Source of the DNA: Candidatus Pacearchaeota archaeon
Lineage (GTDB): Archaea > Nanobdellota > Nanobdellia > Pacearchaeales > GW2011-AR1
Length of the DNA stretch: 56,711 nucleotides
Assembly (NCBI GenBank): GCA_018303755.1
Contig: JAGVXO010000009.1
Span: forward strand, 1 to 56,711
Reading direction: 5' to 3'
Positions 1,388-55,153 of this stretch are shown here, in pieces. Position numbers and translations under genes: made by a program. Each line of letters begins with the position of its first letter. Within the stretch, counting starts at the first letter, position 1. The notes below the pieces were generated by a model. It did no database searches and was not told the DNA's origin. It worked only from the letters and a program-made list of their open reading frames with translations.

Positions 1388-1665
1388 ATGAAAAGATATT
1401 AAATATTTTAATTATTAAAGATTAAAAGAATAAACCTTCAATGAAAAGATATTAAATAATGGAAAAGAATGGTTGGTTGTTAGCAAAATAAACTCGCTCG
1501 CCATTCGGGCTCGCCTTATTTTGGTTCGCTCTGCTCACTTATCTAATTCTGCAAATCTCTAATTCATTTATACTTTGGTTCTTCAGATGATTTTAATTAA
1601 AAGAATAAAACTTCAATTAAAAGATGTTAAATAAGGAAAAGTTATGGGGTGTTAGAAAAATAGTT
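1388..1665 (-). repeat. Modular intergenic repeat family, two partial units
   Basis: Contains ctcgctcgcc..gggctcgcc, cacttatctaattctgcaaat and aaataaggaaaagttatggggtgttagaaaaa, also seen at 30650-30942; boundaries approximate. Confidence 0.75.
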
Positions 1666-2865: not shown

Positions 2866-3109
2866 TTGGTTTGTTGCTTTAAATTTTGTTTAATTCTGCT
2901 ATTGTATCAAAAAGATAGTTTTAAAATGTTTTGATATGGGGTTGCGCCCGAGCAATTGCACGAGCTAAAGGGGTTTATACAACGAGTGCAATCGCGAGTA
3001 GCAGGCGCGCTTGATAATTTAATTAATATCAAAAAAGAAAAAGGCAAATTGAAAAAATGTGAAATAAGGCAAAGCTATGGGATATTTAAAGAAGTGAATT
3101 AGTGCACTA

Positions 3110-3270
3110 TGTGCTTGTTTTATTCTGCAAAATTGTTAACCCTTGATACATTAGCTATTCTGCTTTTTAATTGATACTCTTTAAGATATGCTAAAGATTA
3201 AAATAAAAATAATAAAATTCCAATAAAAAAATATTGAATAAGGGAAAAGAATGGCGTGTTAGAAAAATTA
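3110..3270 (-). repeat. Modular intergenic repeat family copy
   Basis: cttgttttattctgcaaaattgttaa...aataagggaaaagaatggcgtgttagaaaaa. Confidence 0.7.
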
Positions 3271-4839: not shown

Positions 4840-4920
4840 TAGATTCCAATGTATAAATCGGATTAAGGATTTGCAGAATAAAAAAAGGCGAGCGAGGCGA
4901 ATCCGAGCGAGCCAATATCT
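4840..4920 (+). repeat. Modular intergenic repeat family, partial copy upstream of iscS
   Basis: ccaatgtataaatcggattaaggatttgcagaataaaaaaaggcgagcgaggcgaatccgagcgagccaat. Confidence 0.75.
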
Positions 4921-12609: not shown

Positions 12610-12724
12610 GTTAAACTTAATTTCAGGCGATTTATAAGTTTTATTGCGTTGGACAGAGTGGTTAATTGAAGAAGAAATTAAACAAGTGTGAGCGAGATAA
12701 TCTGAATATTCTGCTGACATCTCA

Positions 12725-13075
12725 TTCTTTTTCCTTATTTTACGCCATTTCAATTCTCTTTTTCCTTATTTTACATTAAATATAAATTAAAACATATAAA
12801 TAAAGCATATAAAAATAGATGTATCAAGCGGATTAAGAATTTGCAAAATAGAACAGGCGCGAAGCGCACCATCTTAAGTAAGGCGAGCGAACAGAAGGTG
12901 AGCGAGCATAAATACTTATTTTAATTATTTTGCTAACCTCCCATAACTTTCCCTTATCTTATGTTTGATTATTGGTGCTTTTTCTATTTTATCTTGATAT
13001 AAATAAATAACAAAGAGCCAATGTACCAATGGTTAGCAGATTTGCAGAATAAACAGGCGAGCCGCAACGAGCAAA
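12725..13075 (+). repeat. Modular intergenic repeat family, two tandem units
   Basis: ttttccttattt...gattaagaatttgcaaaatagaacaggcgcgaagcg, then gctaacctcccataactttcccttat...ccaatgtacc..ttagcagatttgcagaataaacaggcgagc. Confidence 0.8.
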
Positions 13076-16517: not shown

Positions 16518-16536
16518 ACTCCAAAAGATTATTTTA

Positions 16537-16738
16537 TTTTTCTAACATCCCATTCTTTTTCCTTATTTTAAGTTTGTTAATGGGTGTTTTTATTTTATCT
16601 TTATTAAATTTATTCAATGTTTAATTAAATTATATAAATTCCAATGTATAACCCAATTAGCAGATTTGAAAAAAATAAAACTGAGCGAAGCGAAGCAAAT
16701 TCATCAGGCGAGCGAGGCGAAGCCGAGCGAGCCAATAT
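16537..16738 (+). repeat. Modular intergenic repeat family copy
   Basis: ctaacatcccattctttttccttattt...ccaatgtataa..ttagcagatttg...ggcgagcgaggcgaagccgagcgagccaat. Confidence 0.8.
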
Positions 16739-25987: not shown

Positions 25988-26764
25988 ATGGAAGTTAAGC
26001 ATACTGAAATAGTTGAGAAGAGAGTTCAAGTTGAAGAATTAGTAGGAATAGCTTCTATTATAAAAGCAGATGAATTTATCCCGCAATATACTGAAGGGGT
26101 TGAGAGATTTCTAAGAGATAATCAAAATTTAGGAGAAGAATGGATTAGAAATGTTAAAGAAAAGTTATGTGGATTTCAGGGAAAAAATAAAGATGGAAAT
26201 CTTCTTGGTTCAAGCATAGATATTGGAGTAGCAATAGCAACATTTACAGATATTCCTTTGATTACAGGAAATCAGTTACTTGGGATTTACGAACAAGCAG
26301 GAAAAAAGAATCCTTTTGGAGAGGTTTATGTTGATTTTGGTGTTGCACTTATTGGAGTTCCACAAGTAAATTACGTTAAGGCAACTGAATTATTAGAGGA
26401 TTTTACAAGAAGAGGAATAAACCTTGAAAATGGAAGAGTTCCAGATTTTGCACAATTAAGGTTAATTATGGATAAATGTGTTGGATTATCTTATAAATTA
26501 ACAGAGAATGTTTCCTCAGATGATGTTGCTTTAGTCTCTGCATATCCTTTTGGTTCCTATGTTGGAAATAATGGTTTGTTCAGGGCTTGCCTTGACGGGG
26601 ACGGCAGCTGGTATGCCGATGATGTTGGCTTGGCTGATTCCGACGGCGATGGCAGGGTGGTTCGTTATGACGCCGAAGGCGTCACGCCACGCGTTGCTCC
26701 AAAAAGTAACACTCAAGATTTGATTGCGGGATTAGTAAAAGAATTTACTGATAAATTCGGATAG
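25988..26764 (+). CDS. DGR target (variable) protein, probable CLec-fold C-terminal region
   Basis: Encodes the VR (GLFRACLDGDGSWYADDVGLADSDGDGRVV) matching the TR about 390 bp downstream. Confidence 0.88.
   Translation: MEVKHTEIVEKRVQVEELVGIASIIKADEFIPQYTEGVERFLRDNQNLGEEWIRNVKEKLCGFQGKNKDGNLLGSSIDIGVAIATFTDIPLITGNQLLGIYEQAGKKNPFGEVYVDFGVALIGVPQVNYVKATELLEDFTRRGINLENGRVPDFAQLRLIMDKCVGLSYKLTENVSSDDVALVSAYPFGSYVGNNGLFRACLDGDGSWYADDVGLADSDGDGRVVRYDAEGVTPRVAPKSNTQDLIAGLVKEFTDKFG
26576..26660 (+). repeat. DGR variable repeat (VR)
   Basis: 85-bp ungapped match to 26964-27048 with 15 mismatches, 14 of them at TR adenines. Confidence 0.93.
26668..26684 (+). other. DGR target-recognition hairpin downstream of the VR
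   Basis: tgacgcc-gaa-ggcgtca: perfect 7-bp stem with a GAA loop, 7 bp after the VR. Confidence 0.8.
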
Positions 26765-26793
26765 TTTTTAAGCTAATATTTCTTTTAAATAGT

Positions 26794-27064
26794 CCTAACC
26801 ATTTAGGTTAGGCCACACGCCAATTTACTAAGGCATATTTGACTTTATTTTAAGCCATGAAATTCAAGAGTTCCTTGCGAGGAACTCTGGTGTTCAAGGA
26901 AACTTGATATGTTCAGGCGAAATTCCTGATATGAAGAAATTCATAAGGTAAATTGGCTACAAGTTGTTCAGGGCTTGCCTTAACAGGAACGGCAGCTGGA
27001 ATGCCAATGATGATAACTTGGCTAATTCCAACGACAACGGCAGAATGGCTTAATAATGGTTAGG
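26794..27064 (+). ncRNA. Predicted DGR template RNA (structured 5' domain plus TR)
   Basis: Nested long-range complementarity 26794-803 with 27055-64 and 26850-58 with 27045-53; four short hairpins precede the TR. Confidence 0.6.
26964..27048 (+). repeat. DGR template repeat (TR)
   Basis: Non-coding, AAC/AAT-rich copy of the VR: ttgttcagggcttgccttaacaggaacggcagctggaatgccaat...aacgacaacggcagaatgg. Confidence 0.93.
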
Positions 27065-27139
27065 TTTTATTTCAATTATAAAAATAATTAAATTCCAATA
27101 TTATCAAGTTAATATGCTATACATTATTTGAAATCTGAA

Positions 27140-27435
27140 TTTTTCTAACACATCCTTCTTTTCCCTTATTCAGCATTTTTTATGGGAGTTTTGTTTTAGT
27201 ATCATCAATTAAAAATTCAAAGAACCAAAGCATCAACGAGTTCGCAGATTTGCAAAATAAAAACAGGCGAGGCGAAGCCGAGCACAAATATTTTCTTTAA
27301 ACATCCCAAATTTTGCCTTATTTCCCATCTTTTAATTTGAAATTTAGTTTATTAAAGGTATCAATTAAAAAATAAAATTATCAGTATAAAAAGTGGTTGT
27401 CAGATTTGCAAAATAAACCAGCAAGCAGAGCTGAT
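27140..27435 (+). repeat. Modular intergenic repeat family, two tandem units
   Basis: ctaacacatccttcttttcccttatt...gcagatttgcaaaataaaaacaggcgaggcgaagccgagc, then a second unit ending cagatttgcaaaataaaccagcaagc. Confidence 0.78.
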
Positions 27436-30649: not shown

Positions 30650-30942
30650 TTTTCTCAAATCCTGCGCCATTTGCATATGGGTTATTCAAATAATTTAACT
30701 AATGTTAAAGAAAATAAAAACACCGAGAAACAAATCTAAAATAAGAAAAAATTATGGGATGTTAGAAAAATAGATATTGGCTCGCCTGCGGGCTCGCCAT
30801 AAGTGCAATTAGTGGTTCGCTACGCTCACTTATCTAATTCTGCAAACACTTAATCCGTTTGCATATTGGTTCTTTGGATTTTTTAAAATAATAAAGCCCC
30901 AATGAAAAAACATTAAATAAAGGAAAGGAATGGGGGTTAGAG
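30650..30942 (-). repeat. Modular intergenic repeat family, two tandem units
   Basis: 30777-30815 matches the reverse complement of 55115-55153 at 37 of 39 positions; attatgggatgttagaaaaa; cacttatctaattctgcaaa. Confidence 0.82.
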
Positions 30943-30945
30943 ATA

Positions 30946-31980
30946 TTACGCCTTCTGCCCTGCTTTTGAAGAATTATATTCAAGGTATAATTCAAAAAGA
31001 ACCATCAGATATGCAATTACAAGGGGCCCTATGATTATTCCAATAAGTCCGAATCCGAGCATCCCGCCTATAAGCCCTATAAGTGTCAGTGAAGTTGGAA
31101 TCTGCGACTGCTTTGAAATAATCAATGGATAAAGAAGATGTTCAGTAAGATTTACAAATATTCCGCAATATATTAACAAAAACATTGCTATGCCTATTTT
31201 TCCAGTTATAAACATTCCTACAACTAATGGAATCCATACAACCCATGGGCCTATTATTGGAATAATGCTCGCAATTGCAGAAATAAACATCAATAATACA
31301 GCATTAGGGACTTTTGCAATGTATAATCCTATTCCCATTAAAATGCCAATTATTATTCCTATCATAATTCTTCCAAAAATAATTGAGTATGTAACTTTCT
31401 TTGATTTTTCTATAAACTTGGATGTTGTGCTTGGTTTGAACGGAAGCGAATTTTTTAAAAGAGCAGTTATTGCCTCTCCATCTCTCAGCCCGTAAAAGAA
31501 TATAATAAAAATTGTTAAAATCTCAAGCATAAGCGACGGAAAATTAACTGCCATTCCGACAATACCATCAAGTGTGGATTTTGTTAAAGAAGATATCACT
31601 GTACTATAAAGGGCAACCAAATTTGCTTTTGACTGCGGAGAGGTTGCTAAAAATGGGGCGAATTCATCAATTGCCTTAACAATGTCAAATGACTGCACAG
31701 AAGAATACACACCAAAAACTTGATCAACAAGCTTTGGTATCATCCACCATATGGAAAGAATTAATATTCCAATTATCAGGGCGCAGATTATTGAAGCAGA
31801 AAGAGTTTTGTTTTTAATATATTTTATCAAGATTTTATTTAGAGGATTAAAAGTATAAGCAAGAATAAGTCCGAGAATTATAGACATAAATATCGGCTTG
31901 ATTATAAAATATGTAAATACAATAAGCACGGCTATAAAGCCGAATGCAATTATCTGTTTTATCACTGATTCATCAATCAT
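30946..31980 (-). CDS. AI-2E family (UPF0118) permease
   Basis: LAYTFNPL, FFYGLRDG, IPIIGP, GLIGIIIGPL. Confidence 0.88.
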   Translation of the reverse strand: MIDESVIKQIIAFGFIAVLIVFTYFIIKPIFMSIILGLILAYTFNPLNKILIKYIKNKTLSASIICALIIGILILSIWWMIPKLVDQVFGVYSSVQSFDIVKAIDEFAPFLATSPQSKANLVALYSTVISSLTKSTLDGIVGMAVNFPSLMLEILTIFIIFFYGLRDGEAITALLKNSLPFKPSTTSKFIEKSKKVTYSIIFGRIMIGIIIGILMGIGLYIAKVPNAVLLMFISAIASIIPIIGPWVVWIPLVVGMFITGKIGIAMFLLIYCGIFVNLTEHLLYPLIISKQSQIPTSLTLIGLIGGMLGFGLIGIIIGPLVIAYLMVLFELYLEYNSSKAGQKA

Positions 31981-50219: not shown

Positions 50220-50963
50220 ATGGGTGCAAAAAAGAAATTTTATATATTCCTGTCATTTGTTCTTATTTCTTTATTAACGGCTGTACTCTCAGGATATTTT
50301 GGAATAAATCTCTCGCTTGTTGAAAATTTCATATCGATAAATCATTACCTTGCAATATTTCTTTACACCATCTTATTCACCCTGCTCACAACATTTGCTT
50401 TTTCATCAAATGCCCTAATTGGAATGTCTGCCTTGTTCTTTTCATCATATGAAGCAATTTTTTATTCAATGATTGGAATAATGGCAAGCTCAATAATTGA
50501 TTTTTATATCTCGCGCAAGCTTGGAAGAAATTATGTAAGAAACTATCTGGAAAAGCACGGCGGAGCATTGGAAAAATTTGATGAAATACTTGAAAAAGAC
50601 ACTTTTAAAACACTTCTTATTCTAAGTATCATTTTTTTTGTTCCAAGGATAATTCCCAATCTGCTTGGAGGAATTGTAAAAATAAATTTGAAAAAATATG
50701 CCCTTGCAACATTTTTAGGAAATCTTCCGACAGTTATCTGCATAGTCTATCTTATTAATGGAATATCCTACTCAAATTATCTGCAGATTTATGCTTCGGT
50801 TGCAGGATTGGTTTTAGTAAGCCTGGTTGCAATATATTTTTATAAAGGTGAAATGAACCATATTCTAAGATTAAGCTTTCCAAGCCTGGTTGCAATATAT
50901 TTTTATAAAGGTGAAATGAACCATATTCTAAGATTAAGCTTTCCGTGGATGTTTAGAAGATAA
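50220..50963 (+). CDS. TVP38/VTT (DedA superfamily) membrane protein
   Basis: FYISRKLGR, YALATFLGNLP; exact 63-bp tandem duplication at 50819-50944. Confidence 0.85.
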   Translation: MGAKKKFYIFLSFVLISLLTAVLSGYFGINLSLVENFISINHYLAIFLYTILFTLLTTFAFSSNALIGMSALFFSSYEAIFYSMIGIMASSIIDFYISRKLGRNYVRNYLEKHGGALEKFDEILEKDTFKTLLILSIIFFVPRIIPNLLGGIVKINLKKYALATFLGNLPTVICIVYLINGISYSNYLQIYASVAGLVLVSLVAIYFYKGEMNHILRLSFPSLVAIYFYKGEMNHILRLSFPWMFRR

Positions 50964-54896: not shown

Positions 54897-54959
54897 TAAT
54901 AGATAAAACAAGCAGGGTTTAAAAAGAGTTTTATGGTTGAAATACACCCTAAAATTAAT

Positions 54960-55153
54960 TCTTCTAACATCCCATAACTTTCTCTTATTTAATGTTTGTT
55001 CATTGGTGTTTTTTATTTAAAGTCCAATTTGCGAAATATTCTAATTGAAATAGGTAAAATTTTATGTACAAACAGATAAGGATTTGCAGAATAAACAAGC
55101 GAGGCGAAGCCGAGCCACTAATTGTACTTGTGGCGAGCCCGCAGGCGAGCCAA
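54960..55153 (+). repeat. Modular intergenic repeat family, full-length copy
   Basis: ctaacatcccataactttctcttattt / cattggtgttttttatt / gataaggatttgcagaataaacaagcgaggcgaagccgagcc...ggcgagcccgcaggcgagccaa. Confidence 0.82.

Follow-up and report, generated by a model that had tools for sequence, protein, structure and literature searches.

Conserved RNA motifs near RT genes, designated RT-1 to RT-19, were described by Weinberg et al. in 2017 (PMC5737381); in the sections cited here, a retron or DGR role was guessed for the set, and the main text assigns no function to RT-16. For the DGRs of Nanoarchaeota DUSEL4, the cited part of Paul et al. 2015 (PMC4372165) reports an IMH of the form TGGGGT, an IMH* of the form TGGAAT and hairpins in the targets. 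The spacer of the BPP-1 DGR, as laid out in the portion of Handa et al. (10.1101/2023.10.23.563531) that deals with its structure, comprises in order an Avd-binding hairpin, a primer strand ending at A56 (which pairs with U118), two linker bases, one strand of a stop duplex, a single-stranded ring and an RT-binding stem. According to the same portion, copying stops 4-8 nt from the stop duplex, and the accompanying survey is limited to DGRs with Avd. The chemistry of priming is disputed between a branch at a 2'-OH, in that work, and nicking followed by extension from a 3'-OH, in the cited part of Naorem 2017 (PMC5703328). In the passages of Wu et al. 2018 (PMC5758913) used here, parts of DGRs act at a distance and in trans. 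The cassette type (Paul 2015), the RT-16 motif (Rfam), and remote targets and trans action (Wu 2018) are already known; a literature search covering papers other than Paul et al. 2017 and the supplements of Weinberg and Handa returned none that ties RT-16 to DGRs or describes a primer module upstream of the template.

The stretch of DNA analysed here (the window) comprises 56,711 nucleotides of Candidatus Pacearchaeota archaeon (contig JAGVXO010000009.1 of assembly GCA_018303755.1, forward strand). It carries what is probably the template-RNA gene of an RT-less archaeal DGR, with a 5' domain that likely primes at the TR end and with an RT encoded on contig C31 of the same genome as the likely source of the enzyme (Table 1). 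The 5' domain corresponds to an already catalogued motif, RT-16 of Rfam: the first 172 nt of the RNA score above the cut-off, and the core helix and an inner stem agree with the model. The Rfam model differs in ending before the TR, in lacking both pairings that involve the 3' end, and in pairing the primer strand locally, as helix P1. An adjacent RT gene is usual for RT-16, whereas the window copy is without one.

Table 1. Features of the DGR cassette, with positions in the window
Feature	Position	Strand	Remarks
DGR target gene, 258 aa	25988..26764	+	VR near 3' end
VR	26576..26660	+	388 nt upstream of TR; 3' end of target gene
IMH-type GG(T) where TR has AA(T)	26656..26658	+	G at both positions in most homologous VRs
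7-bp DNA hairpin with GAA loop after VR (target-recognition element)	26668..26684	+	Sequence
Predicted archaeal TATA box of RNA gene	26765..26772	+	Position conserved among homologues
Predicted template RNA gene: RT-16 domain, TR and short 3' strand	26792..27064	+	Ends from TATA spacing and outer helix
Rfam RT-16 (RF03019) match, 172 nt	26794..26965	+	67 bits, gathering 50, E 2.5e-10
Outer closing helix, 5' strand	26794..26803	+	Pairs with 27055-27064
Predicted primer strand GTTAGGCCA	26807..26815	+	Pairs with TR 3' end, 27046-27054; covariation; A26815 is the predicted priming nucleotide
Core helix, 5' strand; predicted stop for reverse transcription	26819..26829	+	Pairs with 26947-26957; covariation
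Conserved, largely single-stranded segment containing ttaagccat; candidate RT contact	26844..26866	+	Unpaired in Rfam consensus
Conserved stem-loop (hairpin 1); candidate RT-binding stem	26867..26888	+	Short variant in RT-bearing cassettes too
Variable linker with hairpins 2-4	26894..26944	+	Insertion relative to Rfam model; length and content vary
Core helix, 3' strand, just upstream of TR	26947..26957	+	Covariation
TR	26964..27047	+	Directly after RT-16 match
Primer helix, template strand	27046..27054	+	U27046 pairs with A26815
Outer helix, 3' strand	27055..27064	+	Followed by T-rich run where relatives carry RT start codon

Over 85 nt, the TR and the VR differ at 15 positions, 14 of them TR adenines and the remaining one a C/T difference. 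Twelve of the 14 adenine changes are to G, and the outcomes at 1541 TR adenines across 65 VRs (A 706, G 552, T 255, C 28) display the same strong bias, originating from the RT or from selection. Hairpins with GNA loops follow the VR in 34 of the 65 VRs. By its TR/VR pair, its IMH/IMH* difference and the hairpin behind the VR, the locus is a DGR. Neither an RT gene nor an RT remnant was found within the window, and a search for other strains with a 25-nt TR pattern returned no metagenome stretches. The target ORF has no match among Pfam and PDB sequences, and its structural model (pLDDT 68) has none in Foldseek at E 0.001. A wide structure search placed C-type lectin chains at Z 3.7-4.4 over 91-105 residues, with unrelated rows reaching 5.1. 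Matches to profiles of DpHF filaments, a group of designed proteins, were regarded as chance. The target protein is 51-56% identical to the targets of the RT-bearing cassettes L129, L156 and L167/L069.

The layout shares with the DUSEL4 DGRs, as described in the cited part of PMC4372165, the GG(T)/AA(T) difference, the GRA-loop hairpin inside the target gene and the order of target and TR. The DUSEL4 order continues with the RT, which the window cassette lacks. In that part of the paper, small ORFs are put forward as Avd candidates and no RNA structure flanking the template is described. RT-16 precedes the TR in a named single-cell Nanoarchaeota record (L136).

Comparative evidence was drawn from 99 places matching RT-16 in 59 of 151 genomes of the family sample (35 of 151 in the phylum sample), of which 98 were analysed after one fragment was dropped. 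Seventy-eight of these loci were anchored at the A of an ACACG-like word (A26815), at the end of the core helix and at the U that ends the TR (U27046); the last anchor was chosen by reading frame and not by pairing, and the invariance of the pair A26815:U27046 is partly set by the anchors. Nineteen loci were not anchored, owing to a missing TR, a run of N, a weak core or a GC-richer TR, and L097 was also set aside as mis-anchored. For replication, 90 further loci were collected, from which 24 that were not anchored and 12 duplicates were removed, leaving 54. A VR was found in the flank of 60 of the 78 anchored loci. The RT lies directly downstream of RT-16 in 71 of the 98 loci (tblastn), with a median of 26 nt between U27046 and its start codon (n=63), which leaves no room for a 140-nt spacer. 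Counted by genome, with the reservation that kin are not independent, 50 have both RT-16 and the RT, nine RT-16 alone, seven the RT alone and 85 neither. At L079, L080 and L100, 5' parts of RT-16 occur without a TR behind them, as decayed or truncated cassettes.

The 306-nt region has an MFE of -87.7 (z -4.8) and folds better than 100 of 100 dinucleotide shuffles. The initial annotation had proposed a stand-alone template RNA of about 270 nt preceded by a TATA-like word, and both proposals gain support from the homologues. Their RNAs have a median length of 279 nt (225-367, n=71). The word TTTA[AT][AG] begins at exactly -28 relative to the outer helix in 31 of 78 loci, and falls within -31 to -24 in 41 of the 71 loci with a well-defined helix, against 2-9 in flanking 8-nt windows; the window copy lies at -27. 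This conserved position supports a separate RNA gene of about 270 nt. At three loci with a nearby RT (L004, L064, L067), as well as at L191, the RT is on the strand opposite to the RNA, an arrangement compatible with separate transcription of RNA gene and RT. The RNA quite likely has a transcript of its own; none of four RNA runs compared with the cassette covers it, which says little about expression either way. A scan for bacterial promoters and terminators, which is not suited to archaea, gave results at chance level.

All the sequence words on which the initial annotation relied lie where it had placed them, and the first of its two nested pairings, that of cctaaccatt (26794-803) with 27055-64, is borne out. 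The pair probability of this outer helix is 0.9-1.0, and a perfect long-range complement of 10 nt arose by chance in nine of 500 shuffles. Across the 78 homologues, cognate strands form duplexes with a mean of -14.65 kcal/mol, against -9.51 for non-cognate strands, a value as low in none of 5000 permutations; the same swap test gave no signal for a control region further downstream. On alignment A4, where MAFFT had misaligned it, the outer helix was left uncounted, and RNAalifold returned P1 and the core helix from this alignment, not the long-range helices.

The 5' domain does pair with the 3' boundary of the TR, as had been proposed, but through 26807-15 and not through ttaagccat. The pair probability of this primer helix is 0.8-0.99. 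Five of the six positions beyond the A:U pair are paired in 96-99% of the 78 loci, with compensatory types UA46/CG31, GC51/AU23 and UA46/AU20/CG8, and 17 of the 78 have a C-A mismatch at the third pair. The helix recurs in the 54 further loci, where the second pair is UA in 28 and CG in 26, with no exceptions, and where pairing drops from 0.89 in register to 0.21-0.55 when the strands are slid. In a MAFFT alignment of 29 loci, none of 500 shuffles equals its covariation score. On a tree built without the primer columns, independent contrasts favour four pairs approximately 5, 4, 5 and 3 times and oppose them 0-0.3 times, whereas single tree-aware tests on the primer pairs are each under-powered (p 0.06-0.25, none reaching 0.05). 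Single-sequence folds return the primer helix with p above 0.5 in only 56 of the 78 loci, and it is missing from the MFE structure of the C31 RNA.

The core helix, which the initial annotation did not contain, has p 0.87-1.0, and its covariation is as strong as that of the primer helix in the 78 loci and again in the 54. All four hairpins that had been pointed out between the pairings and the TR fold in the window RNA; only the first is conserved, however, the other three being situated in a linker whose length ranges from about 5 to 75 nt across the homologues. Taking outer, primer and core helices together, these long-range helices are very likely real. The structured RNA gene itself is real and its structure well supported, and from that structure we infer the mechanism.

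The limits of sequence exchange coincide with these helices. VR and TR are almost identical (near 100%) as far as U27046+1 and agree at about 30% past that point; on the opposite side, identity sets in 6-10 nt downstream of the core helix. The exchanged stretch is thus bounded on one side by the primer helix and on the other by the core helix. The two adenines preceding U27046, next to the predicted start, each read G in 62 of 65 VRs and persist as A in only two and none of these, against 46% at other TR adenines; this corresponds to the IMH/IMH* difference reported in the cited part of Paul et al. 2015. Loss of the AA before U27046 also fits a start 2-3 nt further on. The 5' domain probably acts as the primer, and A26815 is the somewhat favoured site of priming.

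The predicted archaeal RNA is composed of the BPP-1 modules in circularly permuted order. The BPP-1 arrangement of primer strand, 2-nt linker and stop strand was confirmed on AY029185, and the archaeal RNA repeats the order of primer strand, linker (here three bases), stop strand, single-stranded segment and stem. The BPP-1 pairing Sp52-56 with TR118-122 (GGUC-A/UGCCC) and its archaeal counterpart (GGCC-A/UGGCU) have the same register and both tolerate a mismatch at the third pair. In BPP-1 copying ends a few nt from the stop duplex; in the archaeal loci VR/TR identity likewise begins 6-10 nt from the core helix. The role of 26844-26866 as a candidate RT contact is taken by analogy from the Thumb Ring of BPP-1. 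In BPP-1, however, the module is situated in a 140-nt spacer downstream of the TR, whereas the archaeal module lies upstream. Only about 18 nt follow the TR in the archaeal RNA. The outer helix closes the archaeal RNA, unlike that of BPP-1, and the module is joined to its stop partner by the variable linker, so that the break falls at the position of the BPP-1 Avd hairpin. An HMM of the RT-16 module (nhmmer) had no match in the downstream spacers of BPP-1 and of Avd-bearing DGRs (best E 2.4), and common ancestry with the BPP-1 spacer is therefore argued from topology and short words only.

BPP-1 needs Avd, whereas the archaeal RT-16 DGRs are without a detected Avd. None (PF22296) was found in the genome of the window, which is 81.6% complete, although a divergent helper protein may exist. 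Among the 151 family genomes Avd occurs in six, in none beside RT-16, and in four it adjoins RTs without RT-16. Three Avd-bearing DGRs of the family (L101, L102, L103) follow the textbook order, avd-TR-spacer-RT. Their primer lies 57 nt past the end of the TR and forms 7-8 of 8 pairs; the linker is [A/G]CAU, as in the RT-16 RNAs, and a stop duplex is present. In an RT tree that included no retron RTs, 36 RTs of the RT-16 type are split (SH-aLRT 99) from those of the three Avd-bearing DGRs and BPP-1. On Rfam RT-14 the L103 spacer reaches 43 bits, short of the cut-off of 48, and by this similarity RT-14 may be the downstream spacer of the Avd-bearing type. At L104 (G010:C63, 1-330), in the order TR-avd-RT, stems lie 5' of a TR-like stretch together with a TTAGTA...GAAA word like that of the RT-16 inner stem; this may be a further type with an upstream module. 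Upstream of the RT at L109 (G092:C1) and L114 (G018:C16), a target ORF runs into a TR-type end and an outer 3' strand without RT-16, probably the product of VR x TR recombination that deleted the RNA gene.

Retron RNAs are built in the order closing stem, primer base, RT-binding stems and template, followed by the RT gene. The same order, with the priming base at the 5' side, is given in the cited part of a retron review (PMC8867640). The permuted archaeal order is that of the retron msr-msd, in that the ends pair and the primer base lies 5' of the template. The branch base of retrons is G, whereas the predicted archaeal base is an A at the helix end in all anchored loci (partly set by the anchors); the archaeal template is a TR whose cDNA rewrites a VR, and no effector gene was seen.

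In the mechanism that we favour, the RNA would be made from its own promoter and its ends would close through 26794-803 and 27055-64. The strand GUUAGGCCA would pair with the TR 3' end and set A26815 opposite U27046, like A56 opposite U118 in BPP-1. The RT would start on A26815, most likely at the 2'-OH, yielding a branched RNA-cDNA as in retrons, would copy approximately 85-90 nt of the TR with errors at adenines, and would be halted by the core helix (26819-29 with 26947-57). The cDNA would then take the place of the VR with the help of the GG(T) IMH and the GAA hairpin, and the enzyme would come from the complete DGR on C31. For nanoarchaeal DGRs at large, we tentatively propose as a possible, not yet probable, generalization that they use a circularly permuted, retron-shaped template RNA (RT-16 plus TR) with its own promoter, without Avd and with 2'-OH adenosine priming 5' of the template, and that the system is portable, one RT serving several RNA-plus-target cassettes, including that of the window, which persist across genera.

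The genome of the window contains two RT-16 copies and one RT, located behind the second RT-16 on C31. That cassette consists of two targets, RT-16, TR and an RT with YVDD, which is open for 335 aa and runs off the contig end. This RT belongs to the same clade as the RTs of RT-16 cassettes, and its relatives are mostly in records named Nanoarchaeota, Pacearchaeota or Woesearchaeota. The similar G+C of C17 and C31 and their common dispersed repeat family support one organism. The window RNA is 79% identical to the C31 RNA, which ranks third of 131 and is not the closest. The remote VRs in the cited part of Wu et al. 2018 (PMC5758913) depend on a single TR, whereas the window unit has its own TR and RNA gene and would need only the enzyme.

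Cassettes with a TR but without an RT number 15 when loci with an RT start or without a TR are excluded, two of them having less than 450 nt of downstream DNA and one a run of N in the TR. An RT is encoded elsewhere in the assembly for 11 of the 15 and is absent for the other four, all of these assemblies being incomplete. Seven RT-less cassettes, each from a different genus, form a clade with 100/100 support. Among nine comparable members, each VR agrees best with its own TR, on average at 0.96 of non-adenine positions against 0.72 for the TRs of others (the 9x9 mean leaves out L073, which has no upstream DNA, and L055, which is out of register). This agreement of every VR with its own TR is a sign of service in trans. 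Adenine differences between VR and TR, which gene conversion alone would erase, also persist in this clade, so that retrohoming has most likely outlasted the loss of the RT. As a weak check, RT-bearing clade members were sought by motif; the search caught seven of the approximately 12 members, none followed by an RT start. These sequence relations make it likely that RT-less cassettes of the RT-16 family are served in trans. The window cassette falls outside this clade, its closest relatives carry an RT and similar neighbours, and it is predicted to be a separate RT loss, which may be recent here since its orthologues carry the RT.

Tracts in the clade RTs and repeats in the window were also recorded. 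The loop before the GxPxG motif contains a poly-G/C or (GA)n tract in 34 of 137 clade RTs (e.g. L021, L028, L040, L041, L089). The tract is found in 20 of 21 frameshifted RT genes and in 14 in-frame ones, and in six of 800 control windows; it is absent from the C31 RT. These tracts look like phase variation, and assembly slippage could add to the shifts. Clade RTs also occur in records named Micrarchaeota (L197), Gammaproteobacteria (L188) and Methanosarcinales (L200), with RT-16 present at L197 and L188 and none above the cut-off at L200. Dispersed intergenic repeats of about 60-70 nt lie in both orientations at window positions 1414-1661, 3022-3268, 12705-12988, 16533-16597, 27136-27200, 30699-30947 and 54955-55019 and on most contigs, often beside short GCGAAGC-type palindromes (e.g. 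4886-4918, 16706-16738, 27261-27293); by sequence, the family is MITE- or REP-like. An exact 63-nt tandem duplication at 50819-50944, near the 3' end of ORF 50220-50963, is real or an assembly artefact.

Several other readings of the RNA were weighed. The second nested pairing of the initial annotation, in which ttaagccat (26850-58) partners the TR 3' boundary (27045-53) in a working or alternative state, is very improbable. The two segments are a perfect 9-bp complement in the window, a pairing of AAGUCAU with AUGAC fits on C31 too, and both 26850-58 and the TR end are conserved, so that 81% of cells can pair and the segments could pair without covarying. A 9-nt complement nevertheless arose by chance in 35 of 500 shuffles. 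The paired fraction in 55 loci equals that expected under independence, and 34 of the 55 have a C-A mismatch at the third pair. In the swap test, cognate strands give -1.93 against -2.05 for non-cognate ones, and a shuffling test gives 81.0% paired against 81.6% after shuffling. Covariation among homologues, proposed at the outset as the check, is present for the outer helix and absent here; the pairing has p 0.0, costs 6 kcal/mol when forced and, since the core helix encloses 26850-58, would be a pseudoknot. The alternative local pairing of cctaacc with ggttagg, also noted initially, is the P1 of Rfam. It shows covariation in a subfamily of 29 rows, the window among them, but its probability in the complete RNA at equilibrium is 0.0; it may be a folding intermediate. 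A two-state switch, in which P1 hides the primer strand until the TR is transcribed and the 3' end then displaces P1, would add to the main explanation and not supplant it, and seems improbable. P1 is possible (at least 6 bp) in 36 of 78 loci and is cognate-specific in the swap test, more weakly than the outer helix (-8.51 against -6.76); it is impossible in the other 42, however, and arises automatically when the two 3' strands are similar. Somewhat less doubtful, though still unlikely, is a 5' domain that holds and stops the RT while priming takes place at the invariant A26817 (with G27043 as the first copied base), at a nick or on target DNA. An A occupies position 26817 in 77 of the 78 loci and in all 54 further ones, the AA before U27046 is practically never found in the VR, as if uncopied, 27043 is mostly G across loci, like G117 of BPP-1, the IMH/IMH* differences of BPP-1 fall in the uncopied part, and nicking at the priming site is reported in the cited part of Naorem 2017 (PMC5703328). 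On the other hand, the Watson-Crick helix ends at A26815:U27046, with the register and third-pair mismatch of BPP-1 A56:U118, and the pair 26818:27043 lacks covariation. That RT-16 is a retron RNA making free msDNA, with the adjacent repeat incidental, is improbable in the extreme: the closing stem, 5' primer and RNA-then-RT order resemble msr-msd-RT, and many RT motifs were guessed to be retrons in the cited sections of Weinberg 2017 (PMC5737381), but in 60 of 78 loci the stretch that would serve as msd is a TR matched by a VR with adenine-specific differences, the branch base is predicted to be A and not G, and an IMH and VR hairpin are present. The TR/VR pairs identify the window system as a DGR, not a retron.

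The reading closest to template RNA of a trans-served DGR accepts the same RNA and takes the window copy for a recent relic, with the RT deleted, the cassette unserved and the structure not yet decayed. The orthologues L129, L156 and L167/L069 keep the RT and share neighbour genes with the window, the window TR is 90% identical to that of L129, one TR/VR mismatch in the window is at a non-adenine position, some RT-less relatives have decayed (0.88-0.93), and a few RT-16 matches (L079, L080, L100) have lost the TR. The promoter word, the three helices, the IMH and the hairpin are nevertheless all intact, the window holds no RT remnant, the genome encodes a same-clade RT that has an RT-16 of its own, and RT-less cassettes pair 7.7 of eight primer positions (n=12) against 7.4 in RT-adjacent ones (n=62). 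A relic is rather unlikely on this evidence, and continued activity of the window copy, judged from its sequence, is marginally favoured.

With the trans-served template RNA, an orphan Rfam motif that occurs in roughly one in four sampled phylum genomes (35 of 151) would acquire a function, and priming and stopping are predicted at the level of single nucleotides for a large Avd-free class of DGRs; the one DGR RNA whose mechanism has been studied has its modules the other way round. Because the primer lies 24 nt from the 5' end, the 2'-OH and nick models give very different products, a branched full-length RNA in the former and a 24-nt RNA joined to cDNA in the latter, and hence a cleaner test. 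If true, targeted mutagenesis tools could be built more simply on such a two-part system, in which an RT works in trans with a single self-contained RNA gene, and the archaeal RNAs would form a structural link between DGR and retron RNAs.
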